The notes below the pieces were generated by a model. It was not told the DNA's origin, made no database searches, and saw nothing but the letters and a program-made list of their open reading frames with translations. The translations under genes and the position numbers were made by a program. A stretch of DNA of 64,000 nt, from positions 1 to 64,000 of the IMG/VR virus record IMGVR_UViG_3300037400_002699; one strand, 5' to 3'. Positions 22,777 to 63,800 of this stretch are shown here, one piece after another; positions within the stretch are counted from its first letter, which is position 1; every line of letters begins with the position of its first letter. This stretch comes from a virus (taxonomy: Duplodnaviria > Caudoviricetes).

Positions 22777-23208
22777 ATGAATAAGAAACTTATAAGATTA
22801 ACAGAAAGTGACCTTCATAGAATTATCAGAGAGTCAGTTAAGAGAATTATCAATGAAAAAAGATACGAAGATTTTGATGATGATGCTGACTGGAATGGTC
22901 CAAGTGAAATAGACCCTGTAGCCTATGATAATTTTCGTAAGGGGCTTGAAAATAGCGAATCTTGGTATCACCAAAAGAAACAAGATGATGATGAAAAACT
23001 GTATCATGGATATGAAACTGAACCAGAGTGGTATCGTAATCATAATGTAGACGTAAGTAATCCTCCTGGAAGGATGGCTATGAATGCAATGGCAACCGAT
23101 GAAGAAGACCCAGAAGGCACTATTAGAGACATATCACGTAGTTATAATGGAACATGGAAATCAATGTTACCAGCAGCCGAAAGATTTGCTAATAGAAAGA
23201 AAAAATAG
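22777..23208 (+). CDS. Putative head-internal protein with N-terminal IRLTESDLHRIIRESVKRIINE motif
   Basis: Motif shared with 43393 and other late genes; late promoter upstream; terminator at 23223-23250. Confidence 0.75.
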   Translation: MNKKLIRLTESDLHRIIRESVKRIINEKRYEDFDDDADWNGPSEIDPVAYDNFRKGLENSESWYHQKKQDDDEKLYHGYETEPEWYRNHNVDVSNPPGRMAMNAMATDEEDPEGTIRDISRSYNGTWKSMLPAAERFANRKKK

Positions 23209-23303
23209 CATAAAAAACAAAAAGAGCAACCAAAAGTAGGTTGCTCTTTTTGGTGTCAACAAATATATCGTTCCCTATTTATATACATAATATATTATAA
23301 CGA

Positions 23304-24089
23304 ATGAACAAAGATAGTCAGTTACAAAGAGACATTGAAGGATTAAAAAAAATGGGGGTAGATGTTTTTGATGAAAAATATGCTCCTAAGGCGCAGATGG
23401 AAGTCACGCCAGATAAGCAAGTGGAAACAAAAGAATATGTTAATGTATGTAACTTTGTCTATAAGGGTAAGAAGATAGAGGATATTGGCGATGGTGATTC
23501 TTTCGCTTATTTTCCTTGTGACATATATGGTACTCCTAAGTTATATTATGGTGATTCTCATTTTTCCTGTGCTGGTCAAGCATTTGACGACATATTAGAT
23601 TCTTTCAATGCTGGTAGTTCATATTATTGGCTTAACGACCACGAATTTGATTCTACTATAGAAGAGATATGGTGGAACAGTAGTGAAGAGCGAGGCAGGG
23701 TATTTTTTGGGAAATACATTGTAGTTGGCGAGGATGGTCATATACCTTCTCGTGAGTACGTATTGGGTATAATTAAGTATATGGGTGGCAGTCCTAATGA
23801 TTACACAATACTTTTCAATTGGGGCGACGAGGTAAAGGAGCTTCCAGTTAGTTCTTTTTTATCTAGTAATATGAACACTGGCATTAAGCCTTCAGAATTG
23901 CCTGTGCCAGATATTATTAAGAGGATATATGATGAAGTTACCAACAAGAGAGCTGCTGTTGACAAGAAATTCCCTAGTAATATGACGAGGGCTGAGTATT
24001 ATTATTACGCCAGGCAGGAGAGTAGGTTAATAGACAAGATAATAGTTGAGGTTATAAATAGTCATCTTAATAAGGGTTTAATTAGATAG
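23304..24089 (+). CDS. Hypothetical late protein
   Basis: 261 aa; TATTTATA at 23276; C-terminal QES.LIDKII.EVI motif variant. Confidence 0.75.
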   Translation: MNKDSQLQRDIEGLKKMGVDVFDEKYAPKAQMEVTPDKQVETKEYVNVCNFVYKGKKIEDIGDGDSFAYFPCDIYGTPKLYYGDSHFSCAGQAFDDILDSFNAGSSYYWLNDHEFDSTIEEIWWNSSEERGRVFFGKYIVVGEDGHIPSREYVLGIIKYMGGSPNDYTILFNWGDEVKELPVSSFLSSNMNTGIKPSELPVPDIIKRIYDEVTNKRAAVDKKFPSNMTRAEYYYYARQESRLIDKIIVEVINSHLNKGLIR

Positions 24090-24212
24090 TATTATGGAAT
24101 CACTTTCGCAAGTGGTTGAACAGATATGAGAATAAGATGCGTACAATTATTCCTAAAATGATAAATCATGTGATTAATCCTCCTGTCGAGTAACCCCGAA
24201 GGAGAGGAAAGA

Positions 24213-24248
24213 AAAAAAGAAAGGAGACTGCTGAGGTCTCCTTTTTTT
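24213..24248. terminator. Bidirectional terminator at strand-convergence point
   Basis: A-tract, AGGAGAC-tgctgag-GTCTCCT, T-tract between convergent gene blocks. Confidence 0.7.
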
Positions 24249-24249
24249 A

Positions 24250-24645
24250 TTATAGGTTTTTTACTCTATTCATTTTTGCTTCCAGCTCTCTCTTCTTTTT
24301 TCTTAGGATATTCATTGAGAGTTTCTTTGCGTCATCCTTGTTAAGGAAGAGTATATGGTTGGAGGCTATGAATCCAGTCATCCAGGAATCGTCCCTACTG
24401 TTCTTGTGTACGTAGAACATTGGGATGTTGAAGTACTTACTGGAGTTATACATTCTAATTAGGCACATATGTCCTGGCTTTGGGTTTGCCACATAGAATG
24501 CTTTCCCTGGTTCTATGACTGTAAGTTCTCCAGAGTTCCTGTTGACGGTGTAGAGTGTTACATCTAGAGTTGGCTGTTCGTCCTCACCTTTTGCTTGGTA
24601 GAGGTGATACTGGAGGTCATCGAATGTGAGACTACTGTTCTTCAT
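24250..24645 (-). CDS. Hypothetical protein
   Basis: ORF-track frame, ATG at 24645 (MKNSSL) overlaps upstream stop. Confidence 0.65.
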   Translation of the reverse strand: MKNSSLTFDDLQYHLYQAKGEDEQPTLDVTLYTVNRNSGELTVIEPGKAFYVANPKPGHMCLIRMYNSSKYFNIPMFYVHKNSRDDSWMTGFIASNHILFLNKDDAKKLSMNILRKKKRELEAKMNRVKNL

Positions 24646-24979
24646 CCTTGAGACCGTGAATTGGATTTGAGCATGATGCTGTATGGGTGACAGTTGTTGC
24701 CACGCCTCCACGAGAGTCACCAGTGTATGATACTGTCATTATGTATTCACAACCGTCATACTTAACGACATAGACCTTGGTGGTTGCTGTTGACCACTTG
24801 TCGATGACTCCAATCTCTGTGAAGAAAGTGGAATCATTGAACTGTACCTTTTCCTTTGCCTTATATGGGCTTATGGCTTCCTTGTTTGCGTCTTCGCATG
24901 ACGAAGCACTAAAGAGTATGAGTGCCACTACCAACACCAGGTATGGCAACAGGAACTTACTGTTAAGAAATTTTTTCAT
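24632..24979 (-). CDS. Lipoprotein
   Basis: Basic N-terminus, hydrophobic helix, lipobox-like ASSC. Confidence 0.7.
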   Translation of the reverse strand: MKKFLNSKFLLPYLVLVVALILFSASSCEDANKEAISPYKAKEKVQFNDSTFFTEIGVIDKWSTATTKVYVVKYDGCEYIMTVSYTGDSRGGVATTVTHTASCSNPIHGLKDEEQ

Positions 24980-24987
24980 ATTGTTTT

Positions 24988-25842
24988 TTATTTTGGAAAA
25001 TACAACTTTAAATTTGTATAGGTATCATCTGCGATTTTCTTATAGAGGTCTACCCTGCCGACACCATTGCATTGATGGTACATGTCTGTAATAAGGTGTA
25101 GTTTTGGTTCACCCATTACGAACCCACGTTCCTCATCAAATCTGTTTTTCTTCTCAGAAACCAGGAATGCTTTATGGGCATATTTCTCACTTTCGAAGTC
25201 ATATGACACCTTAAGCAAAGGTGCTTGATAAATTGTTCTCAGCACCTCGAACATATGGTCTTCCATTTCTGGTGATTTCTTTCCTGTCTTTTTCTCACGT
25301 TCCAGCTTCTCCTTAAGTAGAATTTGCCAGATGCTTGCCCAGTTTGATTCATATGGGTGAACAAATGAGTCTTCCCTTTCCTCGAAGAACACCTTACCTA
25401 TATATGGTTTAAGAACCTTATGCCAACAGTATTTTGAGTCATCGTTGAGAGTGAGTCCATTGGATATGTCTGGGAGTGGTCTATCATCGAGCTTCTGTTT
25501 GACTGGATTCCAGATAACTCCAAGCTTTGCCAGTGCGATGTTCGTTATGGATTTCTCAGCATCAGTTGCTGGTTTCATATTGTCGGTTCTGAAATTGGAG
25601 CAGAAGTACGGCACACCAGCGTAAACGCACTTTGTCCTTGTCTTATCCCAGATGAAGTCACCATTTGTGAGCTTCTTCGTTGAGTGCATTTCACACTCTG
25701 CTGTATAGATGAGTTGTACAACTGTATGTGACCAATCAACCCTTAGGGGCCTACACTCTATGACAATGTAGACTGTCTTGAAGTTGCTACAATCGTGTAT
25801 TGTCACATAGTCTCCTCTCTTTGGTAAATCAAACTTGCTCAT
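24988..25842 (-). CDS. Hypothetical protein
   Basis: 284 aa ORF in minus-strand operon. Confidence 0.75.
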   Translation of the reverse strand: MSKFDLPKRGDYVTIHDCSNFKTVYIVIECRPLRVDWSHTVVQLIYTAECEMHSTKKLTNGDFIWDKTRTKCVYAGVPYFCSNFRTDNMKPATDAEKSITNIALAKLGVIWNPVKQKLDDRPLPDISNGLTLNDDSKYCWHKVLKPYIGKVFFEEREDSFVHPYESNWASIWQILLKEKLEREKKTGKKSPEMEDHMFEVLRTIYQAPLLKVSYDFESEKYAHKAFLVSEKKNRFDEERGFVMGEPKLHLITDMYHQCNGVGRVDLYKKIADDTYTNLKLYFPK

Positions 25843-25889
25843 ATTTCATAATGTTCGTTATACTTCTTGTCTTAAAATATCGGCTTCTG

Positions 25890-26189
25890 TCATTTTTTCA
25901 CGTAATCTGGTTTACCTAATTGGATTCTGAATTTCTGTGCGCACTCCTGGCAGAGGAACTGATTACCATTGTCAGTGATAATCAGATACATATAGTCTTC
26001 GTCCTTGAAGGGTTTCTCACAGTTGAGGCACTTGGTCTGAGATAGATGCCATCTGAGGTTATGTTTAACTGCCATTTCATGGAACTTACCATAGTTGAAC
26101 CTAGCACCATTTTCTGGTGCTACGTCTTCCACTGTATATGTAGTGGTAGTGACCTTTACAATCTTTGGGAGTTCATTACAATCTTTCAT
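25890..26189 (-). CDS. Zinc-finger hypothetical protein
   Basis: CLNC...CQEC pairs. Confidence 0.7.
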   Translation of the reverse strand: MKDCNELPKIVKVTTTTYTVEDVAPENGARFNYGKFHEMAVKHNLRWHLSQTKCLNCEKPFKDEDYMYLIITDNGNQFLCQECAQKFRIQLGKPDYVKK

Positions 26190-26515
26190 ATGATTTTCTT
26201 TTTATTGATTACCGTTCCTTCGAATGCTTCATCATAGGGGATTGCTTCATCCTCATGTATGAAGACATCGTATCCAAGCACTGGAATTTCCTCGTCGCCA
26301 GTCTCCCACAGCTTTTCACAGATGTAGTATGGTGGGTGTAGTTCACTCACTCTAAACTTGGCATTGGGCTGCGTGACAAGTACCCTGGTGATATGCATGT
26401 CGTTGGGGAAATCCTTGTTAATTTCCTTCTCTGTCCTAAGTCCATAGTAGTACACGTCTTTTGTCTTGTCCTTTGAGCCATCAAAGGAAATCAACTCACC
26501 TATTTTATACTTCAT
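26186..26515 (-). CDS. Hypothetical protein
   Basis: 109 aa, 4-nt overlap with neighbour. Confidence 0.65.
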   Translation of the reverse strand: MKYKIGELISFDGSKDKTKDVYYYGLRTEKEINKDFPNDMHITRVLVTQPNAKFRVSELHPPYYICEKLWETGDEEIPVLGYDVFIHEDEAIPYDEAFEGTVINKKKII

Positions 26516-26933
26516 TGTTTGCTAATTTTTTCATTAATACCATGTCTGAAAGTTTCTCAGCCACCTTGAAGCCACAGCTCTCGTAGAACTTGACCAGGCA
26601 GTAGAGGGGGATATCGTCAGAATATCTTATTGTCGGTTTTGCTATGAGGGTGATATTGACGTTGCTGTAGAGTTTCACGGCGTATTCAACAATCATCTTA
26701 GCCAGTCCCTTGCGTCTGTACTGTCTATTCGTTCTCAAGTCCCAAAGCCATACATTGCTGTTTGGCTCATTGGTTACAGGCTCTATAATGATTGAGCACA
26801 CAATCTCATTGATGGTGGTGTCACGCACTGCTATCTTGGTAGCACCGTTATTGCCATAGTTGACATGGCACACTGTTGTAATATATCTTTTATCCATTTT
26901 ACTTGAGCGCATTAATTTGTTTAAGTGACTCAA
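26505..26933 (-). CDS. GNAT acetyltransferase
   Basis: YRRKGLA acetyl-CoA motif and KFYESCGF. Confidence 0.8.
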   Translation of the reverse strand: MSHLNKLMRSSKMDKRYITTVCHVNYGNNGATKIAVRDTTINEIVCSIIIEPVTNEPNSNVWLWDLRTNRQYRRKGLAKMIVEYAVKLYSNVNITLIAKPTIRYSDDIPLYCLVKFYESCGFKVAEKLSDMVLMKKLANNEV

Positions 26934-27327: not shown

Positions 27328-27438
27328 AATTTTATAATTTTGGTGCAAAGTTAGACAAAAAATCTGAGATATCCAAAGAAATTAACATTAATTAAGGAAA
27401 AAGACACTCATTGGCCTCCTGGTATCTCTCCAGTTCCT

Positions 27439-28187: not shown

Positions 28188-28266
28188 ACTTTATTAATAT
28201 TTTCTGGTGCAAATGTAGACAAAAAAATCGAGATAACCAAAAATTACCTCGATTTTTAACATTTTT

Positions 28267-28725: not shown

Positions 28726-28727
28726 TG

Positions 28728-31017: not shown

Positions 31018-31175
31018 TATATGTTCTTTAATAGTTATACAATACGGGCATAGCGCATGCCCTCCAATTTTTTGTTGCAAAGATATACAAAAATTTTGGA
31101 ATAACCAAACAATTCTACCTTTTAAAGTGATTTTTAACAATATTTATAGGTTGGAAAAAGTATTTATAGTATAAT

Positions 31176-31583
31176 ATGGGTGTTATTAAAAACATAAAAG
31201 AGTCTATTGACGACAAGTCTTCAATGAGTGTGAACAGCATCACCATGTTGGTGTCTGCCATTATGGGCGTTATCATTGGACTTGTCATATGTTTTGTGCT
31301 CATATACGACGTAGTTTACGATGGTAAGGTTGACACCAACTTGACAGACATGGGTATCTTCCTGCTTTGCAGTGGTGGATACATCCTTGGAAGCGGTGTT
31401 CCAAAGGCTTGGGTTGACAGCAAGATGAAGACTCGTTCTTGGGTAGAGAATGAGAAGATGCAGATTGAGGCTGATGAGGACTTGAGAGACTACAGAATGG
31501 AGAGAAAGAGGAAAAGAATGGCTGGAGTTATGCCTCCAGAACCAGAGCCAGATGATGATAATTTAACACCAGATGAACCATAA
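31176..31583 (+). CDS. Two-TM membrane protein (holin-like candidate)
   Basis: Two hydrophobic helices and charged C-tail; twin TATTTATA at 31141 and 31161. Confidence 0.6.
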   Translation: MGVIKNIKESIDDKSSMSVNSITMLVSAIMGVIIGLVICFVLIYDVVYDGKVDTNLTDMGIFLLCSGGYILGSGVPKAWVDSKMKTRSWVENEKMQIEADEDLRDYRMERKRKRMAGVMPPEPEPDDDNLTPDEP

Positions 31584-31606: not shown

Positions 31607-32722
31607 ATGAATAAGAAAGTACTTAGTTTTGTAAACAAGCTTGAGGGTTATAAGACAGCCATCAAGGAGCTTCATTGGGATGCTGATAATATGTCCCAGC
31701 ACGAGCTTTGTGACAAGATAGCAGACAGCATAGCTGAATTCCAGGATACTGTATCAGAGGTTGAACAATCAATCACTGGAAAGCTTGCAACTGGTAACTT
31801 GAAACCAGTATCATATAAGGTTACGACATTGAAGAAATTCGTTGAGGATGTATTGGATGCTACCAACACTTTCTACAAGAGTCTTGAGGATGAGGGAGAC
31901 ACATACACTGGCATGAGAAGTGACTGTGAGTCATTCCTGTCAGACATGCAGAGAAATCTCTACCTTGTCAACTTCACCATGAAGGAAGACCTTAAGAGAA
32001 GGCTTGCTAATAGAATCAACGAAGCATACAGGAAGGAAGAAAACATCAAGACGACGTTTCATGGTACAAAGCCTTCCACTGAGAAGGGTTTATTCAAGAG
32101 AATAAATGACCTAACGAAGAATGGGCAGCTTAATACAAGGTTATTTGGCGGTGTGTCTGATGCCCTTGATTTCTACAGGAGAATCCTTGGTAAAATTGGC
32201 AATCTTAGGTGTGTTGATGCCTGTGAAGGTAATAATTACGTTGTTAAGCTTGATACTGAAGGCGGGCTTAGTTATTTAGGCCTTATGAGAATTAAGGATG
32301 CTGAAGAAGGTAAGTGCAAGGCTAGTATTACATTCTCCCCACACGCTGATGCGAACGATGGTGTTGAACCAGAGGAATCAGAGCCTACAATTGAGGATGA
32401 CTTTGATTATGAGGATACTCCAAATAAATACGGAACTGTTCAAAACGATAGAAACTATGAGATTTATGGAGAAGGAAGAATCACCAGGATGACTGGTAGT
32501 GAACTTCACAATCTTATCAAGGAATCTGTAAAAAAGCTGCTTAAAGAAGAGGAAAGTTCATATAGGGGTATCTATATACAGGGCTTAGGATTGCCAGAAG
32601 AGTGGCTAATGCGTAAGATTGACTGGGCTTTTGATGAGAAGGGTTATTCACCAAAGCAAGTTCAGTGGATGGTTGACTGGTTGGCACATGAGACTTCTAA
32701 TGATGAAAATTATAGGCGTTAA
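31607..32722 (+). CDS. Ferritin/Dps-like N-terminal domain fused to further domains
   Basis: KELHW...HELCD..D...FQD..SE ferroxidase-like pattern; internal GSELHNLIKESVKKLLKEE motif. Confidence 0.65.
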   Translation: MNKKVLSFVNKLEGYKTAIKELHWDADNMSQHELCDKIADSIAEFQDTVSEVEQSITGKLATGNLKPVSYKVTTLKKFVEDVLDATNTFYKSLEDEGDTYTGMRSDCESFLSDMQRNLYLVNFTMKEDLKRRLANRINEAYRKEENIKTTFHGTKPSTEKGLFKRINDLTKNGQLNTRLFGGVSDALDFYRRILGKIGNLRCVDACEGNNYVVKLDTEGGLSYLGLMRIKDAEEGKCKASITFSPHADANDGVEPEESEPTIEDDFDYEDTPNKYGTVQNDRNYEIYGEGRITRMTGSELHNLIKESVKKLLKEEESSYRGIYIQGLGLPEEWLMRKIDWAFDEKGYSPKQVQWMVDWLAHETSNDENYRR

Positions 32723-32724
32723 TT

Positions 32725-32976
32725 TTGAATGCTATGATATCAGAGAATATAATAAACAATATAATCAGTGAGTCCATTAATCTTGTTCTTGAGGGAAAGA
32801 GCAGTATTCACATCAAGAAAAAGAACAAGGGAAAGTTCAATGCCTTGAAGAAGAGGACTGGAAAGTCCACTGAGGAGTTGACTCATTCGAAGAACCCGTT
32901 GACCAGGAAGAGGGCCGTGTTTGCTCAAAATGCTAAGAAGTGGTCCCACAAAGGCAGGAAAAATAAAAAGAGTTAA
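32725..32976 (+). CDS. Small basic putative virion DNA-binding protein
   Basis: IHIKKKNKGKF...RKRAVFAQNAKKW motif, resembling one in Bacteroidota phages, preceded by ISE.II.NIISES..LVLE segment. Confidence 0.65.
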   Translation: MNAMISENIINNIISESINLVLEGKSSIHIKKKNKGKFNALKKRTGKSTEELTHSKNPLTRKRAVFAQNAKKWSHKGRKNKKS

Positions 32977-43267: not shown

Positions 43268-43392
43268 AAGCGTATACTGTTTTCTATAACTAGTGCAAAG
43301 ATATATGTATTTTTTCTAAAATACAAGTATTTATAGAAGAAATAGGGATTTTCTAACGTTTTTTAGGAAAAAGCCTACTGGAGGATAGGAAT

Positions 43393-43779
43393 ATGAAAAA
43401 GGTAATTAGATTAACAGAAGGTGACCTTCACAAGATTGTGAAAGAGTCGGTTAAAAAGATATTGAAGGAGTATAATTTCAATGCTGTTCGCAGTGTTGAA
43501 ACAAAGCTGAAGATGGCTGCTGCAAAAGCTCAATATGGAAGATATAATGAGGCTGCTAGAATGATAGAGGAGGCATCGGAGCTTGTTGAACAGTACAACG
43601 ACAAACTAATCCAAGCATTAGGTGAAGACGAGTATGAGCAACTAGTTAAGATACTAGATGCAATGGTTCGCCCAATGCCCGTAGACGGAAAAATTCTATT
43701 GAGGCTCATAACCAAGGCATTGGCTATCATAAAGAATGGATATAAGACAGATGATAAAATTGAATTTGGTGAAATATAA
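43393..43779 (+). CDS. Putative head-internal protein with IRLTEGDLHKIVKESVKKILKE motif
   Basis: Motif shared with 22777; TATTTATA at 43328. Confidence 0.75.
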   Translation: MKKVIRLTEGDLHKIVKESVKKILKEYNFNAVRSVETKLKMAAAKAQYGRYNEAARMIEEASELVEQYNDKLIQALGEDEYEQLVKILDAMVRPMPVDGKILLRLITKALAIIKNGYKTDDKIEFGEI

Positions 43780-44323: not shown

Positions 44324-44713
44324 TTACTTGATGTTCCTCAAGAAGTCGTAACTTGTCAGATTTCCAAGCTTAAGCTTTGGTGACCTGTTGTACCAATCCT
44401 TGGCAATCTGGAGGAACAATCCCTTTCTTTCTAACTCATTTGCTATTAATTTATGATAATTTTCTTCTGATTCTAGTTGGTCTACCACATCGTCAATCCA
44501 TGCGGACTCACTAGTTGGTATTCCGTTCATTAACTTTACGAACACGGCAAGAGGCTTCATCGTGCCATTGCTATTCTTACCCTGGTACTGACCCTGCGTG
44601 TAGTTATCGTCCAAGAATTTCTTCACCATGAGAATCTTGTCTGCATATGATTCATTGATAATCTGCCTTTTGACAGTATCGAAAGCTCTTTCTGATAATA
44701 TTATCTTCTTCAT
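44324..44713 (-). CDS. Hypothetical late protein (KKIILSE...IINES N-terminus)
   Basis: 129 aa; minus-strand TATTTAT at 44733-44739. Confidence 0.7.
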   Translation of the reverse strand: MKKIILSERAFDTVKRQIINESYADKILMVKKFLDDNYTQGQYQGKNSNGTMKPLAVFVKLMNGIPTSESAWIDDVVDQLESEENYHKLIANELERKGLFLQIAKDWYNRSPKLKLGNLTSYDFLRNIK

Positions 44714-53162: not shown

Positions 53163-56100
53163 ATGGGAAAGACTATTAGATTTAACGAGAATGGTTTAAT
53201 AGCAATTAAGGGCAAATTAAACGAAATTATGGTTGGCACTGATGGTGTCAGCCATAATGACGTTTATGGTAATGTTAAGCTATATCATGGCACTACCATC
53301 GATGCATTACTTATGATTATGGAAAGTGGTGTGATGTCAGCGAAGCGTGGAAAACAGCATGGGGAAACATATGGTGTTAATTGGTTCTCGTTGAAGAATG
53401 GTGATAATTTTAATAAGGGGGTATTATTTTCCATTGAAGTCCCAGGGGATGTCTTTAATGAGAGATTTAGGATGATGAATAGCTCTGAGGCAGTATCAAA
53501 GGATGATGACCTGGATATAACTGGTTTTAACCTAACTATTGAAAAGATATGCGGCTTATCAAGAGGGGCTATAAAAAATGCATATGACAGATATGTAAGT
53601 AATGGTGATAGATATCCATTGGAGAGCATTGGATATTTATTTGACCATTTTATTGAAAAAGTGCAAGACGATGACGTTTTGTTCCCTAGCATCTTATATC
53701 ATAATTGGGATAAATATTATCCAATGATTATGAAGAATATACTTGGAAATAATATTAATGAGAGTGTTGCAAAAGAGTTTGCTCCAGTTACTAGTATTGG
53801 TATGGAAAAAGGTGGCGGACCTGGGTTATATGCCCATAAAAAGGAAGTTGATGAAGAAATTGACTTTGATGATAATGGCATGTCAATCAATGACGATAAA
53901 ATACTTGGAAAATACAATCTCAAAGACTTGATACTGTCAAAAACTGGTAACTACGTAACTCTTAACAAAATAGTTGCTAATGAACTTGGTAAGGGGTGTG
54001 GTAGTAAATTTATGGAAGAACTTGCTAGAATTGCCGATAAAAATGGTTGGATTCTAGTTCTTACTCCAGACACTGCATTTGGCGGTTCTTCTGTTTCAAG
54101 GTTGAAGAATTTCTACAAACGATTTGGGTTTGTTCCAAATAAGGGGAAAAATACTGATTTTAACACCAGGGAATCTATGATAAGAAAACCATTAAACGAA
54201 AATAAGTATGATGATTTGTTTGATATACGTAATACAAATAAAAAGATATCAGACTGTGAAGAAGCTATTTCATATTTCAAAAATGTTTCTGATGAGATAA
54301 GGGAGAAAAAGGAGCACATATCTAGTAAATATGGGTGTAAAAGTATGTTTTTTATTGCTAGTATTAATCAAGGGGTAATACAGGCGAACCAGAATGATGT
54401 TAATGAATTTCATAGATTGAGTGACGAAAGGAGAGAAATAGAAGAAAAAATAAAAACTCTCAAAGATTTAATTAAAGAGATAGAGAAGGAAGAAAAAAGG
54501 GAAAAAGAAGCACAAAAGTATCGTTTAGAACAAGAAGAGAATGATAGAATATTTTCTTTAGTAATTGATGAATATGGAACAACAAATAGAATAGAAAATG
54601 CTGAGTATATACTTCCAGACGGAACTATGCTATATTCTGGAGGAGACCATAGAGGTATTGCTAGTATTTATGCTACGAATAATATTAGTATTTTTGATGA
54701 TAAATATCGCTACAATTATGTTGTAGATTTTTTGAATCGTGGCGCAATTAGGTGTCGTATGTTTGACGGGGATGGTATTCTAGATATGACAAGAGAGCCA
54801 ACAGGCAAGCAATACCAAGTTATTAATACATTTGCCCGTTATGCAAGTAATATTAATATAGATTTCACTAGCAATGAAGGAGAAACATTGAATTCAGTAT
54901 CATATTCCAATGCAACGCCACAGAGAATTACTAGCGATATATACAAGTACTATAACGAAGGTATTATACCGCAAGAAAATTCACGATTTGAATCAAAGAA
55001 AAGCAAAAGTATCGTAATATCAGAAAATAAACTTGACGTTATAAAAGAAAATATTGAATCAGAGGTTGAATCGTCAGAGGTTGACCTTTCTTCGTTCAAG
55101 AAACGTGATACACTACCACCAAAGATATGGAAGGATGAAGAGACACTTAACTCAAAGGTTAGATTGAAACTTCTTGACATTGCAGATGACTTCTGGAAGT
55201 TCGTTAACCTTACCTGGGTTGAACCAAAGGGAATTATTATAACTGGCTCTATATGCAACTTCAACTGGTCTAAGTTCTCAGATATAGACCTACACCTAGT
55301 GGTTGACTTTAATGAGATTGACAGCAAAACTGAATTTGTTAAACAATATCTCGATTCGAAGAAGAACGAGTGGAATGCAGAGCATGAGGGATTGAAGATA
55401 ATGGGATTCCCTGTTGAGTTGTATACACAGGATGTTAGCGATAATGTTGAGGCTGGTGGAATATATGACCTGGAGGAGAATGCGTGGATTAGGAAACCTA
55501 ACCCACACACCATTAAGAGCATAGGCCTTGAGAAGTTTGACATCAAGCGCAAGGCGGCTGAGATAATGACAATCATTGATGAAATGTACAAGACATTATC
55601 ATCGACTGATGACGGATATGAAGTAAGTAAGATTGGTGAGGACGCAAGCTACCTATGGGAAAAGGTAAAGAGCTTGAGAAAGAAGAGCCTCACGAAGCGC
55701 GGAGAAAACGGTGCGGGAAATATAGTGTACAAGGTACTTAGAAGAACTGGATACCTTGATAAACTATTTAAATTATTCTCAGCAACATATGATAAGTCAA
55801 ATTCAATAACTGAGGGCGTACAATATGACAGACTTCGCAATGACCAGGTGTTCAGATACCGTGTCATAGCTGATATGGTTAAAGATGGATATGTATTTCA
55901 TGGTACTGGTGAAGACGGAAACGGAGTTGAATGGGATGCTGTTGACCCATCTAAAATAAAGGGTGGCAGCAGAGGAACGTATGGTTATGGTATATACTTT
56001 TCAGACCATGCATATAAGTGTGAGAAATATGCTGGCTACAGTGGTGGGCATTTCATAATAGCAAACATAAAAGGTTTTAACCTCATTAATTTGAGAGACA

Positions 56101-57938
56101 AAATCGATAAGGAAAATAATATCTTTGTTGATAAACAAGTAGAATATCATCGTTTGTGCGATGCATTGGATAATGCTAGAAACAACAGAGAGTATGACAT
56201 GATATTAGCCAAGATAGATGAATATAAGGAAACTGTTGACAAGGAGTTGCTGTATGAAATCACTAGAATCATCGACAAATCTGATGGCGATATTACCTAT
56301 GGGTATCTTAATGAGAACATACCATTGTTGTGGTATATGGAAGGTGATAGCAGAAAAAGGGTTTCAAACTTATATCTTTCTTTAGGCATTGATGGATTTG
56401 CTGTAGACACTGAATTTGTGATATTCAATTTCGATAAACTTAATAACGCCATTGTTAAAAATAAGGAAGAATTGATTTTACAATATGTACAGAAGGCTGG
56501 ATTATCAGAATCTGCCAAGCAATACCTCAAGGTTCTGAAGGAGGAATTTGCAATGGATGGTTCGTCTGAAGGAAACCCTTACGAGAAGAGGTGGAAGGCA
56601 GAGCGTGATGCATTAAAAAACTTTGTTGCCAATTATGGTAAACTGATGCAGTCGAAGGAAGACAATAAGATGGGAAGACTGTACAAGGTCTATTATGACG
56701 AAACGATGTCAAATCTCATAGGATATAACTACTGCATCTGTGTGCAGTGGGATGAATTAACAATGAAACCTAAGAGTACAGTATATATTAGGGCGTTGGA
56801 TAAATTCACTCCATTTATAAGGAGAAATTTGCAATATGATGATAGAGGGTTAGATAACCAAAGAGGTACTTATGATGATAACAGATTTGTTAGAGAATCA
56901 GTAGATGAATTGAATTTATATCATTCTAGCTATAGTAGTTTCGATAAGTTCAATCATAGGAAATATCTAAGTTCTGGTGCTGGTTCTCAAACCTTTGGGT
57001 GGGGAACTTATCTTACAGATTCATATCCTATAGCAAAAGACTATGCTGAAAAGTTTATATTATTGAAATTTAATGAATTTATTGTTAAGGCAGAACCAGA
57101 GAAGTACATTGAAAATAATGGGTCATATGACGAAGAACTAATTAAAGAAGCTGCTAAAACATATAAACAAATAGTAAGATTCAATATTTCATTTAATCCA
57201 GATAAAAGATGGAGTAAAAATTCTTTTAATTCTTCATTAAAAACTGATGAAAATGCAACTGAAAACTATGACAGTGCTTTGAAGGAATACGAACAAGCAA
57301 TACAAATGGCAAAGTCTTGGGCTGAAAATGTTCTTAAAACAGAATTTAATCTTGAAGAATTCAAAGCAAATTATTCAAAAAATAGCATTCTAAAGTTTTC
57401 TAAACAAGAATATATTAATAACGTCAATAGACAAAATGCAATATATCAATTAGTAAAAGAAATGATAAATAATATATGGGATGATGCTGATAAGCACGTT
57501 AGAAAAGAATCCTATATATATGAAGTAGAGACACCAGATGATAATGGCTTAAATTATATTGATTTAAATAATGAAGTTCCAAATGAAATCATAGAAAGCA
57601 TAACTAGTACTCTTTCTAAAATATCAAGAAGATATGGAGGTGAATGGAAAACAATGAGTAAGTGGCGTGAATTCTTATCTTATTGTAATAACGCTCCCAA
57701 AGGAGAAGATATACATGATGAGCTTGGAAAACTAGTAGGAGTAGAAACTTCTATTGGTAATTATGATAAAGCCATATCATTATTCTTACTACAGTGCGGA
57801 ATTGATGGATTCAAATATAAAGCTGGAACTATTTATGGCTTACCAGATGGAGCAGATGAAAATTCTACAAATTATGTTATTTTTGATGCTAATAAAGTAA
57901 GAATCGTTAGTAAGAACCTATTTACTGATACTTTTTAG
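53163..57938 (+). CDS. Polyvalent multi-enzyme protein (ART-like, GNAT, pol-beta nucleotidyltransferase, two ART-PolyVal-like domains)
   Basis: LYHGT..; GKGCGS..M..L...AD..LKNFYKRFGF; ITGSICNFNWSKFSDIDLH; FHGT..GYGIYFSD; YHSS..F.KF..GAG.Q.FGWG.Y.T...GIDG..Y...NYVIFD. Confidence 0.82.
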   Translation: MGKTIRFNENGLIAIKGKLNEIMVGTDGVSHNDVYGNVKLYHGTTIDALLMIMESGVMSAKRGKQHGETYGVNWFSLKNGDNFNKGVLFSIEVPGDVFNERFRMMNSSEAVSKDDDLDITGFNLTIEKICGLSRGAIKNAYDRYVSNGDRYPLESIGYLFDHFIEKVQDDDVLFPSILYHNWDKYYPMIMKNILGNNINESVAKEFAPVTSIGMEKGGGPGLYAHKKEVDEEIDFDDNGMSINDDKILGKYNLKDLILSKTGNYVTLNKIVANELGKGCGSKFMEELARIADKNGWILVLTPDTAFGGSSVSRLKNFYKRFGFVPNKGKNTDFNTRESMIRKPLNENKYDDLFDIRNTNKKISDCEEAISYFKNVSDEIREKKEHISSKYGCKSMFFIASINQGVIQANQNDVNEFHRLSDERREIEEKIKTLKDLIKEIEKEEKREKEAQKYRLEQEENDRIFSLVIDEYGTTNRIENAEYILPDGTMLYSGGDHRGIASIYATNNISIFDDKYRYNYVVDFLNRGAIRCRMFDGDGILDMTREPTGKQYQVINTFARYASNINIDFTSNEGETLNSVSYSNATPQRITSDIYKYYNEGIIPQENSRFESKKSKSIVISENKLDVIKENIESEVESSEVDLSSFKKRDTLPPKIWKDEETLNSKVRLKLLDIADDFWKFVNLTWVEPKGIIITGSICNFNWSKFSDIDLHLVVDFNEIDSKTEFVKQYLDSKKNEWNAEHEGLKIMGFPVELYTQDVSDNVEAGGIYDLEENAWIRKPNPHTIKSIGLEKFDIKRKAAEIMTIIDEMYKTLSSTDDGYEVSKIGEDASYLWEKVKSLRKKSLTKRGENGAGNIVYKVLRRTGYLDKLFKLFSATYDKSNSITEGVQYDRLRNDQVFRYRVIADMVKDGYVFHGTGEDGNGVEWDAVDPSKIKGGSRGTYGYGIYFSDHAYKCEKYAGYSGGHFIIANIKGFNLINLRDKIDKENNIFVDKQVEYHRLCDALDNARNNREYDMILAKIDEYKETVDKELLYEITRIIDKSDGDITYGYLNENIPLLWYMEGDSRKRVSNLYLSLGIDGFAVDTEFVIFNFDKLNNAIVKNKEELILQYVQKAGLSESAKQYLKVLKEEFAMDGSSEGNPYEKRWKAERDALKNFVANYGKLMQSKEDNKMGRLYKVYYDETMSNLIGYNYCICVQWDELTMKPKSTVYIRALDKFTPFIRRNLQYDDRGLDNQRGTYDDNRFVRESVDELNLYHSSYSSFDKFNHRKYLSSGAGSQTFGWGTYLTDSYPIAKDYAEKFILLKFNEFIVKAEPEKYIENNGSYDEELIKEAAKTYKQIVRFNISFNPDKRWSKNSFNSSLKTDENATENYDSALKEYEQAIQMAKSWAENVLKTEFNLEEFKANYSKNSILKFSKQEYINNVNRQNAIYQLVKEMINNIWDDADKHVRKESYIYEVETPDDNGLNYIDLNNEVPNEIIESITSTLSKISRRYGGEWKTMSKWREFLSYCNNAPKGEDIHDELGKLVGVETSIGNYDKAISLFLLQCGIDGFKYKAGTIYGLPDGADENSTNYVIFDANKVRIVSKNLFTDTF

Positions 57939-57990
57939 AAAATTTTGATATTTATATTAAAAATAAGTTTGAAAAATTAATATATTAATT

Positions 57991-59763
57991 ATGAATAAAG
58001 TAAACACTAACGACACTCTTAACAGAATGAAGTCATTAATGAATTACGGACTTCAGACTGAGAGCAAGAAAGCACCATACAGTGCTGTTGAGTACCAGAA
58101 GGTTGGTGCTGACGGAAAGGTTTATGGTATTGTACGTGAAGGTACTAAGTATTACATAAAGACTGCTCCTAACAAGCAAAACCTTATTAAGGAAGACTTT
58201 GGCTATATTGGTGGTTTCAGAAACAGAAAAGAGAACGAGTACACCAGTTACGCTAATGCTCAGAAAAACTTTGACATGAAGATGATGTCTCTTAAGGAGG
58301 CTTATAATAACCCTACCTTCAATGTAGAGTCTTGGGACTTGAATAAGAAGGAATTGGTTGTTACTGAGGCTTCTGACAAGATGAAGGGTGAGATTCTTCG
58401 TGAGCGTCAGATTATGAAGAACGCTATGAACATCATGGAGAAGAAGACCACTAGCGAGTGTGGAATTTCTGCTGAAATCGCTGGAACACAGAAGGCTAAT
58501 ATGCCTAGTGGAAAGATTGAAACTGGTAATGCTCCAGCCCATAGTGGACCTTTTGAGGAGTGCGGTGATAAGGAACTTCCAAAGGAGATGAAAGAATCTG
58601 TTGTTAAAGAAGAAGAGGTTCTTGGTTGGAACAGAAAGAGTCCAGACTATATGGACAAGTCTCACGGAACTGAAATCGGTGACAGCGCACCATTCGACGA
58701 TGCTGAGGCACGTAACATTGATAACCAGGACAAGAAGGTAACAAAGACTGGTGAAATGAAGAACGGTGTTGTTGAGAATCACGGTGTTTCAATGCATGAC
58801 ACTGACAACCAGAACAAGCCTGGTGTAGGTGTTGGTGAAGGCCCTTCAGATGACAACAACAAACCATTCGATGCTGAGAAGGGAAAGCAGATTGACGAGG
58901 CTGTAGATGGTCTCGATACCCCTCCAATGGATGATGCAGAAGGTGGAGAAGAGCCAATGGGTGATGAGCCAATGGGTGACGAAGCTCCAATTGACGATGC
59001 TGGTGCTGAGGGTGAGCCAGTTGATACTGGAATCGGTGATGAGGCTGGACTTGACGATGAGGAAGGTCTTGACGATGTTGACCTTGATGATGAAGAAGGC
59101 CTTGACGATGATTTCGAGGATGAAGACCCATACGACGAAGAGCTTGAAAACCGTCTTGATTCACTTGAGGATAAGCTTGACATGATTATGAATAAGCTTG
59201 GCGTAGACGAGCCAGCAGTTGACGCTGACAACTACGAGGACGATGACCTATTCGGTGATGAGGACTTCGAGGATGATGACGAGTTTGGTGACGATGACTT
59301 TGAGGGTGAGGAAGGCTTCGGTGAGGATGACCTTGGTGGCACTCCAGAAGACGATGAGTTCGAGGATGAAGACGAGGATGAGTACCCAATGGAGTCAAGA
59401 CGTAGACGTGGCGTTCAGATTTTCGAGACAAGGGCATTCAAGAGAGCAATGCGTAGGAATAGACTTAATGAAGAGGGTATGACCCCATTCACTGATGCAG
59501 GTCGTGTTCCATCTGGAAATATGAACAAGCTCGATGACTTCGGAAAGCACCCAGCATATCAGAAGGTTGTTATGGATTTGCCACCAAAGGATATGAAGGA
59601 ATTCCCTGGCAACTATGACATGAACGACGATTCTGTTAAGAACGACACACCTTATGGTGAGAAGATTGGTGATGGTGCTCCATTCGACATTGACCCAGAG
59701 GCAATCGATAACGCAATTGCTGAAGCTTTTGACCGTTTAAAAAAAAAAGGTAATAGAGGATAA
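57991..59763 (+). CDS. Highly acidic putative prohead scaffold/core protein
   Basis: 590 aa, RMKSLMNY N-terminus, long D/E tract, many (I/L/V)-x-E sites; TATTTATA at 57949. Confidence 0.65.
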   Translation: MNKVNTNDTLNRMKSLMNYGLQTESKKAPYSAVEYQKVGADGKVYGIVREGTKYYIKTAPNKQNLIKEDFGYIGGFRNRKENEYTSYANAQKNFDMKMMSLKEAYNNPTFNVESWDLNKKELVVTEASDKMKGEILRERQIMKNAMNIMEKKTTSECGISAEIAGTQKANMPSGKIETGNAPAHSGPFEECGDKELPKEMKESVVKEEEVLGWNRKSPDYMDKSHGTEIGDSAPFDDAEARNIDNQDKKVTKTGEMKNGVVENHGVSMHDTDNQNKPGVGVGEGPSDDNNKPFDAEKGKQIDEAVDGLDTPPMDDAEGGEEPMGDEPMGDEAPIDDAGAEGEPVDTGIGDEAGLDDEEGLDDVDLDDEEGLDDDFEDEDPYDEELENRLDSLEDKLDMIMNKLGVDEPAVDADNYEDDDLFGDEDFEDDDEFGDDDFEGEEGFGEDDLGGTPEDDEFEDEDEDEYPMESRRRRGVQIFETRAFKRAMRRNRLNEEGMTPFTDAGRVPSGNMNKLDDFGKHPAYQKVVMDLPPKDMKEFPGNYDMNDDSVKNDTPYGEKIGDGAPFDIDPEAIDNAIAEAFDRLKKKGNRG

Positions 59764-60322
59764 AGAGCCTAACAAACCACCTAAGTATTTGGATATAGAA
59801 GACGAAATAGGTGGAGATATTAAAAATAATCTAAACAGTGACCCACTAGAAGGTGGTATTGATGGGGTGGATAATTTAGACACATCATTGTCTTCAGTGG
59901 ACACTGGATTAGGTGGCGACGTTACACAGACAGATAATCTTGGCGGTGATATGTCTGGAGACATGACTGGAATGGCAGGCGACCCAAATGCACTTAGTGC
60001 AGGAGGAAACCCAGAGGTACAGCAGTTTGTCCAGGACTTCCAGAATTCTGACCCAGAGACACAGAATAGTACCATGAAGTACTTTGATAGTCAGAAAAAG
60101 GATGGCGGCACTGACCAACCAGCTGATGCAGCAATGCCACCATCACCAGGAGCAATGCCAGAGTCAAAGTTCAACTTCAAGAGAATAATTGATGAGACTT
60201 TCTCAGCAATTTTCGGTGATGGAAACCAAAGCAACTTTGAAAGAGGGACGACTGACAGACCTCAGACAGTAGTAGGTGAGGATGCTTTAACACAGTTAGA
60301 CAATCCATATTTACCAAGATAA
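59741..60322 (+). CDS. Acidic ORF, probable frameshift extension of 57991 gene
   Basis: Frame open from 59741, no ATG near its 5' end, +1 relative to upstream gene at an A10 run. Confidence 0.55.
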   Translation, partial: KKKVIEDKEPNKPPKYLDIEDEIGGDIKNNLNSDPLEGGIDGVDNLDTSLSSVDTGLGGDVTQTDNLGGDMSGDMTGMAGDPNALSAGGNPEVQQFVQDFQNSDPETQNSTMKYFDSQKKDGGTDQPADAAMPPSPGAMPESKFNFKRIIDETFSAIFGDGNQSNFERGTTDRPQTVVGEDALTQLDNPYLPR

Positions 60323-60326
60323 CATA

Positions 60327-60356
60327 AAGGGGATACCAACGGGGTATCCCTTTTTT
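60327..60356 (+). terminator. Intrinsic terminator
   Basis: GGGATACC-aacgg-GGTATCCC + T-tract. Confidence 0.75.
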
Positions 60357-60389
60357 GTTTGCAATGATATTTATATTAAAATTAATCTT

Positions 60390-60887
60390 ATGAAAGTATA
60401 CGTTAAGAAAGATAAGGTATTGAAGCTTCTTGGAGAAGGTAAGGTGTTCTCAAAGAAGGATTTAATTTTAAGAGAATTTGGTGGAGACACTAATAGCAGT
60501 GATGACGACACTGTTTCAATAAACCTATCACCAGATAATACCAATAAAAACCCATCACAGTTATCACAAAACGCAATAACTGCAAGAAATACAGTAACAG
60601 CACCTGGTAAAAAAATTGTCGGAAATGTTCCTGTTGAAGATGTCAATGGTGTTACTGCTCCAACATTATCACAGAATGACCCTGGTAACGATATGACAAT
60701 TGACTCATCAGATAATACCAGCACAGGCATAAAGAATGCAGCAGTTGCTGCTTCTAAGGCTAGGGTTGGTTCTGTTACAGTTCCAATTAAGGATTCTGTA
60801 AAGTCAAAGAAGGTTATGGATGAAATGAGAGCCAATTCAATACCATTTACAAAGTCAGAGTTAACAAAGTTTCTAAAGAGTCTTTAA
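60390..60887 (+). CDS. Hypothetical late protein
   Basis: 165 aa; TATTTATA at 60368. Confidence 0.7.
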   Translation: MKVYVKKDKVLKLLGEGKVFSKKDLILREFGGDTNSSDDDTVSINLSPDNTNKNPSQLSQNAITARNTVTAPGKKIVGNVPVEDVNGVTAPTLSQNDPGNDMTIDSSDNTSTGIKNAAVAASKARVGSVTVPIKDSVKSKKVMDEMRANSIPFTKSELTKFLKSL

Positions 60888-63800
60888 TGAAAAAGATATA
60901 CATCAACGAAAGTCAAATTAATAAGGAACTACTGCTTCCAAAGTTCCTCTTTGATGCAGTGGTTAAACATGAGACCTCCCTTGGGGATAATCCAGCATTC
61001 CCAGAGGAGGATGACTACCCGTTTGACTATACTGTTCTGAAAGAGGGGTTCAAGGATGTATGCGAACAGATGAAGGATGTTGGTATACCTATAACTAGCA
61101 CTGATGATATGGTATCAGAACTTGGTGCTATGGTCAATATGGCGAAGGAGCTGGAAAAGCCTGTAAGGGATTCACTTACAAAGATTTGCGAGAATGCAAT
61201 CAACAGGCTGTTTGCAATACCAGAGGGTGCTGTAAACATAAGATGCAGGCTTGTTGACAAGGTTACATATGGTAGCTCAATAGGAGTTACTCCAGAGATT
61301 TCCACCGACAGAAAGTTTAGATTTAAGGATATAAAGGACTTTGGTTTATCAAAGGCTGCAATTGCCAAGAGAAGACTTATTAATTCCCTTATTATGGGTG
61401 CTTCGGACTTTTACATGTCAATGATTACGTTGTACCAGGAAGACATTAATAAGCTTAATCCAGAACTTCTCGGACTGTATGACAAAATAATAACGCTTAA
61501 CAGGTATCTTACATTTGTCCTTGATGAAGAACTAAGTGATGAGAAGCCAAAGCAGGGGTCATTTGTGGAAGTACATGTTGGAAGTAACGGTAAGAAGAAT
61601 ACAATAGATGCACAGGGTGTCATATTCCCATTGCTATTCCATGACTTAATTAAGGGATTCTTCGAGCTATTTTCAGTTCATGGTTTGCCTCTTGATGGCG
61701 AGAAGGCTAAATATATAATCGGAAAGTCTGATTTCCTTCTTGCTGAGCCTTGGGATATGAGGTTTGGAACAAAGTTATGGCAGCTTATCTTTGATAGGCT
61801 GGAACTTGCTGAGGATACAAATATTGTACCTTATGTTTTTATGGAACTCGTTAAGCTGCCAACTGAAGAATTTAACCCAGTTATGCAGGAGTTGTTTATG
61901 CAGACTGAGAAAGGTGATGAAATCATTGGTAAGCTTATTGAGAAGTCAAGGTATAACGATGGATACCAGAAGTTCCAGAATAGGATTAATGCCAGAAATG
62001 TAGATAGGTCGATGATTGCTGATAGCTATTTCACTGCTTCTGAACTAGATGGATACGATATTGATGGTGAGGAAGATGGAGACGTTATCCAAGAGGATAT
62101 AATCACAGAATCCCAGGAATCTAAGTCAATATCTGCCGCAAAGAAACTTGTAATGCAGAAATTTGGATATGATGAGCAAGAAGCGGACGAATTTGTTAGA
62201 ATAAAGTTAAGAAACGACATACCATCTCTAAGAGATGTAGCCGCTAAGTTTACACTTGGTGTGACAAGAATGTTTTGTGACTATGAGTTGGAAGACGCTA
62301 ATACGATAAATAGGCTAAACAGAACACTAAAAATTGTTGGTTCTGAAGCGCATATTAATGAATATGATAGAAATCTCAACGGACTGTCAGCAGATGAACT
62401 CATAGACAGATTCTCACAGGCAATGACAGATAATGTTAATGCTGAGAGGGAACAAGATTCTAAGTTTATACCTGTTAAGCCCTCTGAATATACTATAGTA
62501 AAAATAGATTCATATAAGCAAGCCACTAAATATGGTAAATATACAGACTGGTGTATCACACATTATAAAAATAATTATGATAACTATACATGTAACGGTA
62601 TAAACCAGGTGTATTTTTGTTTAAAACCTGGTTTTAATAAACTATTAAGGAAAAAAGGAAGTAACTATCCACTCGACGAATATGGTTTATCAATGATTTC
62701 TGTTATCGTGGACGAGGACGGAGGACTTGCTTATTGTACATGTCGTTGGAATCACGGTGATGAGAATGATGGCTCATGTGATGACAGTGTTATGGACTAT
62801 AACGGCATTAGAGAACTGATGCAGGTTAGGTTCTTTGACACCTTTAAACCAAATAATAAGTGGAAGGAGTTTATTAGTTCGACGATGGAACGCCTTGCAC
62901 GAGGAGAAAACCCAGCAGACGTATTTGATTATTATGCTTATACAAATCTAGGATTTAGTGTAGTAGGTTTCGAAGAACTGGAGAGATATAATGTTATTGA
63001 TAAAGAAAACAATTTCATATCTGATAAATGGTATGTTTCCATTAAGCTTAACAATATTGGTGTTTTCATTGTTGAAGATAGTTCATATAAAAAGAGTTAT
63101 ATGGATTTAAATGGTAATGTAATATCAGAGAAATATAACGATATTGAAATTGACACTTATGACGGTTTGGCTATTGTTAGGAGAGATAGAAAATATAATT
63201 GGATTAAGCCGAATGGTGAAAGATTAAATAATGATTGGTATAATTGGGTCGGTAATTTTAAATACGGCCCAGCTCAAGTAGGTTCTGAAAAAGGAAAGAA
63301 TTTTGTTAACACCAACGGTGAATTAATGTGTAAAAGATGGTACGATGATATACACAGCATGACACTGAATAAAGATGGCACAATGGTAACGTTAGGTAAT
63401 AAAACAAATTACATTGATGCTAATGGTAATGAAATATCCAGTGAGTGGTTTGATGGAGGTTTCTATCGTTTTAACTATGGCTTTGTTGGTGTGTATAAAA
63501 ATTATGGTAACAACGTTACCCGTGCTAATTTTATTGACACTAAAGGAAATCTTTTATGTGATAAATGGTTTAAATCAATTATTAAAGATTTTAATAGAAA
63601 TGGAATTGCTGAGGTTACTGATGAACATGAAATGTTATATACAATAAACAGACGTGGAAAAATCACTAACACTGGAAAATATTATGGTGATTGGAAAGAA
63701 TATTCTGCTGACCCAGAATGTGTTAAAAAAGAAGTTAACAAGTTTGATACCCTTTTATATTACTTGATGACAGATGGGCAATGTAATTTATCATGTGCAG

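Follow-up and report, generated by a model that had tools for sequence, protein, structure and literature searches.

A widespread 27-residue leader peptide of T4-like jumbo phages, a candidate capsid-targeting and processing tag

In bacteriophage T4, a short N-terminal capsid-targeting sequence (CTS) is carried by IPI, IPII, IPIII, Alt and gp24 and is removed by the protease gp21 (Mullaney and Black 1996; reviewed in PMC9026906, PMC3012670, PMC5694885). This enzyme cuts after the Glu residue of an L/I-x-E motif, and Asp in its place stops processing but not targeting; Alt, an ADP-ribosyltransferase, is packaged, trimmed by gp21 and injected (PMC9026906). In the giant phages SPN3US, phiKZ and 201phi2-1, ejection or inner-body proteins bear long N-terminal propeptides, which a protease of the gp21 type cuts (PMC5694885, PMC7411985, PMC10052503). 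Here we describe a 27-residue leader peptide (referred to below as the tag) found on otherwise unrelated proteins encoded by IMG/VR virus record IMGVR_UViG_3300037400_002699 (Duplodnaviria; Caudoviricetes). The stretch in which it was noticed (positions 1 to 64,000, 64,000 nt in all; termed the window) belongs to a single viral contig of 134,273 bp. Its completeness was estimated at ~45% by CheckV, and the contig is therefore part of a T4-like jumbo phage genome of roughly 300 kb. On evidence that is circumstantial, it is reasonably likely that the tag is a capsid-targeting and processing propeptide, working like the T4 CTS but longer.

The preliminary description of the window had noted near-identical N-termini of the proteins encoded at 22777 and 43393 and an additional copy within a Dps-like gene, and had proposed scanning the whole genome with a profile of the motif. 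Both observations were reproduced by translation and profile analysis. The profile, built from the copies, matched eight places in the 134-kb genome with scores of 35–62 bits, whereas the next best match reached 5.6 bits; chance or low complexity was thus rejected as the origin of the copies. The leader (M-x-K-K-x-IRLTESDLHRIVKESVxRILxE) forms the N-terminus of seven unrelated proteins and lies inside an eighth. The window contains the copies at 22777, 43393 and 32477 (the internal one), and those at 68968, 69364, 76019, 106032 and 129114 are located outside it. All eight are on the + strand, in small + strand islands where the neighbouring genes are on the − strand. The cargo proteins of the seven N-terminal copies share no common family, and a search of a protein atlas with the cargo encoded at 106032 gave no usable match. 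The coordinates of the features discussed are collected in Table 1.

The anatomy of the tag was examined in 375 distinct copies, derived from 150 representative proteins and about 80 viral loci, with the consensus M-(N)-K-K-L-I-R-L-T-E-S-D-L-H-R-I-V-K-E-S-V-(N/K)-(R/K)-I-L-x-E. The information content amounts to 3–4 bits per position over residues 6–27 and drops from 3.76 to 0.59 bits at residue 28, which identifies the tag as a sharply bounded module. It contains three acidic anchors, Glu10 (98%), Glu19 (83%) and Glu27 (93%), at which Asp essentially never occurs (1% at position 27). The residue two positions before the anchor is Leu for Glu10, Val or Ile for Glu19, and Leu (77%) or Ile (16%) for Glu27. 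The tag consequently ends in L/I-x-E, the same motif as in the cleavage rule of gp21. In an AlphaFold2 model of the 43393 protein, residues 1–8 are extended and a helix begins at residue 9, with a predicted local distance difference test (pLDDT) score of 84–95 over the tag. A ribbon-helix-helix domain was considered and rejected: the conserved part comprises one strand and one helix (27 of about 45 residues), which is half of the fold, and no match to this domain or, apart from the weak ones given below, to any other Pfam family was found on tagged proteins. Synonymous codons differ at every position of the tag (both Leu codon families are used, as are both Ser families at position 11) and the amino acids are fixed. 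This indicates selection on the peptide and not on DNA or RNA, and conservation purely at the nucleic acid level was rejected.

A profile search of 1.84 billion proteins revealed 5,759 cluster representatives (protein clusters at 50% identity) at E ≤ 0.001, of which 1,163 were at E ≤ 1e-10. The tag clusters originate almost exclusively from rumen and gut Prevotella jumbo phages, and complete genomes of 295–413 kb carry 8–19 tags each. The tagged members that were looked up are unnamed or annotated as "hypothetical protein", with one evidently spurious automatic name on two members. Pfam and PHROGs searches with the tagged proteins, 124 family representatives and the largest tagged proteins of complete relatives yielded only weak DUF5856 and ADP-ribosyltransferase (ART) matches, and a literature search with the letters of the motif returned nothing relevant. 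The tag is a real, sharply defined, extremely widespread and unannotated element.

The relatives come from rumen metagenomes, and nearly all of the small number of bacterial genomes with the motif belong to Prevotella or Segatella; the host is thus very probably a rumen Prevotella. The closest deposited relatives of the major capsid protein, which is of the gp23 type, are distant T4-like phages of Flavobacterium and Microcystis (38–41% identity), followed by thousands of T4-like phages at about 26% identity.

The tag genes are linked to a T4-type head. The head modules of all eight relatives compared are arranged alike: terminase, portal, 311-aa protein, 145-aa gene, protease, scaffold, capsid protein. 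From one to four tag genes lie beside the 145-aa gene in seven of them (two in the genome studied here), and genes with the half-tag start defined below occupy this place in the eighth. This slot by the protease corresponds to T4 genes 67 and 68, which encode small prohead core proteins. The protease itself is a member of the gp21 family (Peptidase_S77). A protease of this type was detected in 13 of 32 large tag-bearing IMG/VR records, including all four complete genomes; from the summed completeness of the fragments about 10 further matches were predicted on the premise that each such phage has the enzyme (about 14 over all records), and nine were found. The capsid protein retains the sequence (I/L)-x-E|AT at residue 60, within the N-terminal region that aligns with the propeptide of T4 gp23, whose own cleavage site is LTE|A. 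Judging from this site, the cleavage specificity of the protease is probably conserved with that of gp21.

Two further components of the module are enriched in L/I-x-E (Table 1), as expected for degraded core proteins: the acidic scaffold in the T4 gene 22 slot and the 311-aa protein, which is encoded after the portal and before the tag genes and is probably a degradable part of the prohead core. The latter is kept in all relatives, in some of them with long N-terminal extensions (546–764 aa). At its centre the tag has the pentapeptide hydrophobic-(K/R)-E-S-hydrophobic, of which the proteome contains 13 instances where 1.0 is expected. Outside the tags, the scaffold and the capsid protein each have it at the N-terminus, and it is also present in the 311-aa protein. 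The preliminary description had named the acidic protein encoded at 57991 as the scaffold to which the tag binds. This protein is indeed strongly acidic, but the gene 22 slot is occupied by 71434–73038, and 57991 was rejected as the main scaffold. The two proteins have in common only an 18-residue motif (E 0.001) and their acidic composition, so 57991 could at best be a weak paralogue.

If cargo proteins meet and survive a protease with L/I-x-E specificity, they are predicted to avoid this motif. The prediction was examined with 150 proteins of no more than 50% mutual identity, which supplied 243 cargo segments with 23,295 residues in total; expectations were obtained from composition-preserving shuffles. 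The motif [LI]-x-E was observed 126 times, compared to 177 expected (ratio 0.71, z −4.3), whereas it is enriched in the untagged proteins of the genome studied here (1.20, z +4.6). Control motifs were enriched alike in cargo and untagged proteins: [LI]-x-D (1.25 and 1.24, respectively), [LI]-x-K (1.19 and 1.13) and E-x-[LI] (1.31 and 1.11). A second set, compiled from IMG/VR loci, gave ratios of 0.76 for tagged proteins and 1.20 for their untagged neighbours. Avoidance of the motif is therefore a family-wide property of the cargo.

The preliminary description had placed the tagged genes in units led by TATTTAT(A), and this motif was indeed found 15–71 nt upstream of every tag-bearing transcription unit (22777, 43393, the units starting at 31176, 68021 and 75367, then 106032 and 129114). 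At the same distance it also precedes the genes for the terminase, portal, 311-aa protein, protease, scaffold and capsid protein, as well as several tail genes. TATTTAT occurs at 96 sites genome-wide, 46 of which lie within 150 nt upstream of a start codon on the same strand, and there is one occurrence in the first 22 kb, a region of small + strand genes. Read on the coding strand, TATTTAT(A) corresponds to the T4 late promoter TATAAATA in reverse complement. Its placement makes it a candidate late promoter element, which fits co-expression of the tag genes with the structural genes.

No recognisable replication, metabolic or tail domain was identified in the tagged proteins of this genome and its relatives. 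The cargo of the 176-aa protein encoded at 76019 is an ART-PolyVal/AcrIF11-like ADP-ribosyltransferase (feature score 0.94, structural TM-score 0.61, weak Pfam match), a parallel to T4 Alt. The gene is located about 900 bp downstream of the capsid gene, with two small genes between them. Polyvalent proteins that are injected contain the ART-PolyVal form (PMC7824862).

These features allow a comparison with the described systems. Like the T4 CTS, the tag is a short N-terminal peptide common to unrelated, fast-evolving proteins and ends in L/I-x-E; the phages share a gp23-type capsid, an acidic scaffold core and a gp21-family protease; an ADP-ribosyltransferase is among the cargo, and the genes are dispersed as separate late units. 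The propeptide of T4 gp24 (MAKINELLRE|S) is patterned as the first ten residues of the tag (MAKKLIRLTE|S), ten residues being too few for a test of homology. The tag departs from the T4 CTS in being longer, with three candidate cleavage sites, in its stronger conservation and far wider distribution, in its copy number and in its mobility, having been carried by transposons into bacterial chromosomes; it is also often internal or repeated. In the comparison with the gp24 propeptide the resemblance was one of pattern, with no detectable sequence homology.

The similarity to SPN3US, phiKZ and 201phi2-1 lies in the giant size of the phages and in their many internal head proteins, whose propeptides have several x-E cleavage sites; in this group the paralogues gp53 and gp54 have an identical 15-residue N-terminus, read as CTS-like. 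The propeptides of these phages comprise 80–160 residues, use A/S/G-x-E sites and have no single portable motif in common, in contrast to the compact tag, which recurs on hundreds of unrelated cargo proteins. Encapsulin cargo-loading peptides are also short and portable and bring unrelated cargo into a shell of the HK97 fold. They are usually C-terminal, bind the shell directly, remain uncleaved and have no sequence relation to the tag.

Analysis of 185,579 species genomes revealed 40 tag loci, in 22 of which a transposase gene of the IS1595 family lies directly downstream of the tagged gene in convergent orientation. The same downstream transposase, in some cases a remnant, was found in 11 of 78 viral loci. 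These elements (2.4–2.8 kb) have 25-bp terminal inverted repeats, are bordered by 8-bp target duplications (e.g. TAAACTAA, TAAATAAT, AAATTTAT and TAAGGAAA; perfect at loci L040, L091, L093 and L110) and encode a DDE_Tnp_IS1595 transposase. The tagged gene is a passenger inside the repeats, and in most elements its stop codon and that of the transposase gene abut or overlap in TTAA. The elements of the relatives are thus organised like transporter insertion sequences of the IS1595 family, which occur with tagged passengers both in relatives and in Prevotella chromosomes; two are chromosomal in cultured Prevotella strains, and Segatella bryantii DSM 11371 contains a remnant. Two differences from such transporters are that the genome studied here has none (neither an IS1595 transposase nor a remnant was found in the window or elsewhere in the contig) and that the passenger is of phage type and keeps TATTTAT, located 14–37 nt upstream of it in seven of eight elements.

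The tag of the passengers is often preceded by an extra N-terminal domain of 130–210 residues with an invariant R-x-S-x-H (L103:5398-6000, L102, L107, L060, L008, L079), linked to the tag through a conserved ENKQY(K/N)xNTN. The R-x-S-N-H domain has no sequence match in Pfam, PHROGs or PDB, and its AlphaFold2 model is poor (pLDDT 60), with no Foldseek match.

Association with IS1595 explains the spread of tagged cassettes, and the loading system may also be used by elements that are not part of the phage. A far-reaching version, which we regard as unlikely, is that the tag serves as a ticket to the capsid exploited by IS1595 elements of Prevotella chromosomes: the passenger gene, led by the TATTTAT motif of the phage's late genes, would be switched on only upon infection by a jumbo phage, and its product would be loaded into progeny capsids, either as a host- or transposon-encoded "Trojan horse" that sabotages the virions or hitch-hikes with them, or as part of a trade by transposons in injected effectors between phages and their hosts.

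The preliminary description had interpreted the motif as a portable tag that loads proteins into the prohead and is then removed at a Glu site. This remains the best-supported reading after the tests described above: the S77 protease, the synteny with genes 67 and 68, the L/I-x-E end, the promoter motif, the ADP-ribosyltransferase cargo and the motif avoidance all speak for it, whereas the binding partner at 57991 and most of the looser variants discussed below were not sustained. We infer docking, encapsidation, cleavage and injection as follows. The tagged proteins would be made late in infection, alongside the head proteins. The extended segment (KK-x-IRLT) and the basic amphipathic helix (ESDLHRIVKESVxRILxE) of the tag would dock on the acidic prohead core, composed of the scaffold 71434–73038 and the L/I-x-E-rich 311-aa protein, and possibly of 57991, and formation of the shell would enclose the docked cargo. 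The S77 protease would then cut after Glu27, and probably also after Glu10 and Glu19. The mature cargo, diverse, fast-evolving and including the ADP-ribosyltransferase, would be freed within the head and injected together with the DNA.

Several observations weigh against this reading. (i) The tag is nearly three times longer than a T4 CTS (27 residues against 10–20), and its invariant polar residues Thr9, His14 and Ser20 are not explained by a cleavage site alone. (ii) The best 150 proteins hold 242 tags, 125 N-terminal and 117 internal, and 88 of these proteins have two or three copies; roughly half of all copies are either internal or belong to such a set. (iii) Tagged genes reside in Prevotella chromosomes as IS1595 passengers, where a capsid is available only upon phage infection. 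(iv) The seven cargo proteins of the genome studied here are not depleted in L/I-x-E (8 observed, 8.0 expected). (v) The co-occurrence of the S77 protease and the tag could merely mark one phage lineage. (vi) A tblastn search with the tag against 50,697 deposited phage records gave no match, i.e. it was not found in cultured phages.

Some of the same features would suit a tag that acts in the cytoplasm as a protein-protein interaction module with no relation to the capsid, mediating oligomerisation or docking on a hub of host or phage (RNA polymerase, a chaperone or a nucleoid protein, for example) and giving a family of effectors a common partner. The length of 27 residues, the invariant Thr9, His14 and Ser20, the confidently predicted strand and amphipathic helix, the internal copies (two or three in some proteins) and the occurrence in bacterial chromosomes are all in line with such a module. 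It leaves unexplained, however, why the tag ends so abruptly, with a Glu that is strictly kept and never replaced by Asp within L/I-x-E, why the cargo is depleted in this motif, and why the genes lie beside the prohead protease and share the promoter motif of head genes; we therefore consider it improbable.

A second alternative retains the protease: the tag might be mainly a removable pro-peptide, a safety catch on effectors that are loaded through other features of the cargo. The three hydrophobic-x-E sites of the tag, the avoidance of the motif by the cargo and the potential toxicity of an ADP-ribosyltransferase agree with this possibility. The cargo proteins have only the tag in common, though, with no other common loading signal visible, and in T4 one short peptide does both jobs (PMC9026906), so that a safety catch without a loading role appears quite improbable. 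Least likely is that the conserved segment serves mainly at the DNA level, as a handle for recombination by which cargo cassettes are exchanged, in the manner of demarcation motifs in polymorphic toxins or of the conserved regions that flank the T-even internal-protein locus, with the peptide mattering little: two IS1595 elements have tag DNA of 90% identity between flanks that are unrelated on both sides, 45 of the 117 internal copies retain a start Met, suggestive of whole-cassette fusion, and codon choice deviates from the background at some positions, but free synonymous variation with fixed amino acids denotes selection on the peptide, and recombination of this kind is compatible with a capsid-targeting propeptide rather than an alternative to it.

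The preliminary description had also listed looser variants of the motif at 32725, 44713, 53163 and 60887 and at the C-terminus of 23304. None of them has a profile score, and nothing was found in support of the last one. For three of the variants there is indirect support. The half-tag pattern hydrophobic-x-hydrophobic-[TNS]-E-[SGNQ] within the first seven residues, picked post hoc after looking at the data, is present in 9 of 173 predicted proteins (0.47 expected), including 53163, 60887 and 107074. Moreover, orthologues of 53163, 32734 and 107074 in other phages bear fuller tags. The orthologue of 107074 begins with MRIIRLTENQ, and that of 32734 in L041 with ITLSESEFFKIVREAI; in L025 and L046 the domain of the latter is fused to the end of the Dps-like protein.

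The orthologue of the 1591-aa protein encoded at 53163 begins with MRKVTINESDLLKIKE, and residues 422–601 of this protein are homologous to a fully tagged 273-aa protein (L081/L082). It is possible that 53163 is a packaged "polyvalent" protein with a putative tag. No match to its gene was obtained by megablast against deposited phage genomes. In the case of the 1004-aa protein encoded at 60887, the start MKKIY(I/L)xE(S/N) is kept in close orthologues and missing in distant ones, and residues 756–887 have a homologue in L085, a protein of 181 aa with a full tag. Avoidance of L/I-x-E is not seen in either of these large half-tag proteins (25 observed and 20 expected in 53163). A TATTTAT motif lies 26 nt upstream of the 44713 gene, whose L012 orthologue begins with MKRIIISENGL.

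The internal tag copy lies in a + strand unit beginning at 31176, of which the Dps-like gene is the second. The family matches of this Dps-like protein are weak (DUF5856, E 5e-4; phrog_858, E 1.5e-4). Elsewhere, the domain that follows the internal tag stands alone as an N-terminally tagged 83-aa protein (P0117), from which it follows that the internal copy arose by gene fusion. The architecture Dps-like domain, tag, small domain was also seen in relatives. The Dps-like/DUF5856 domain, the tag, the small domain and the basic 80-aa protein are variously separate or fused there (L025, L046, L136, L134; 580–650 aa), and in L089 the Dps-like gene is located within the head module. The Dps-like protein may be a packaged DNA-binding protein.

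Other observations concern the head modules of the relatives. The portal (1126 aa) and terminase (788 aa) of some of them match the reference in two separated pieces (L089:2469-5849, L090:10647-13013, L085:8809-10632), a pattern suggestive of inteins or other insertions. The S77 protease of G025 and G026 lies within a protein of 607–609 aa. Genes whose products share the N-terminus K(I/V)HGNKYDYSK are repeated and dispersed in head and tail modules (85213-86577 and 120038-121039 of this genome, and several open reading frames of L083-L090), and look like a mobile, homing-endonuclease-like family.

Table 1. Coordinates of the tag copies, tagged and tag-like proteins, TATTTAT sites and head genes (contig numbering; the window ends at 64,000)
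Feature	Position	Strand	Remarks
TATTTAT	22738-22744	+	39 nt upstream of 22777
Full 27-residue tag (M1-E27)	22777-22857	+	profile 60.0 bits
Tagged 143-aa protein	22777-23208	+	acidic cargo, probably disordered; no Pfam or PHROG family
Dps-like fusion, 371 aa	31607-32722	+	Dps-like/DUF5856 N-terminal domain, tag, small C-terminal domain; TATTTAT of its unit at 31141 and 31161
Internal tag copy RITRMTGSELHNLIKESVKKLLKE	32477-32548	+	residues 293-316 of the 371-aa protein; profile 47.3 bits
80-aa basic protein	32734-32976	+	degenerate leader ISENIINNIISESINLVLE; no profile score; not a demonstrable copy
TATTTAT	43328-43334	+	65 nt upstream of 43393
Full tag (M1-E26)	43393-43470	+	N-terminus one residue shorter; profile 60.1 bits
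Tagged 128-aa helical protein	43393-43779	+	+ strand island amid − strand genes
129-aa protein	44324-44713	−	weak tag-like start MKKIILSE...IINES; no profile score; not a demonstrable copy
1591-aa multidomain protein	53163-57938	+	tag-like start MGKTIRFNENGL; matches PHROGs of giant phage proteins
590-aa acidic protein	57991-59763	+	pI 4.2, 26% Asp+Glu; TATTTAT 42 nt upstream
1004-aa protein	60887-63901	+	half-tag start MKKIYINESQ; just upstream of terminase; no profile score
Terminase	63963-65843		head module
Portal	65904-67949		head module
311-aa protein	68021-68956 (L001:4021-4956)		L/I-x-E 17 observed, 6.9 expected
Prohead protease, T4 gp21 family	70568-71257	−	Peptidase_S77 87 bits (cut-off 27) and phrog_207
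Acidic 534-aa scaffold	71434-73038		T4 gene 22 slot; outside the window; L/I-x-E 11 observed, 5.7 expected
Major capsid protein, gp23 type	73108-75144		
ART-PolyVal/AcrIF11-like cargo, 176-aa tagged protein	76019-76549 (L001:12019-12546)	+	ADP-ribosyltransferase
TATTTAT sites of the window	22738, 31141, 31161, 43328, 44739(−), 52765, 57949, 60368, 63934		many more beyond the window
IS1595 elements with tagged passenger	L103, L113, L110, L091, L093, L107, L040, L060		relatives and Prevotella genomes

If the tag is a capsid-targeting and processing propeptide, sequence alone would reveal which proteins are packed and injected by giant Prevotella phages, thousands of them uncultured. These would be likely first-strike effectors of anti-defence and host takeover, almost all of them without known function. 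The principle of the T4 CTS would then reach a distant T4-like branch in a much more conserved and modular form, and the 27 residues would constitute a ready-made handle for putting foreign proteins into such phages. Finally, the cargo of the capsid would be tied to the traffic of transposons between phage and host genomes.

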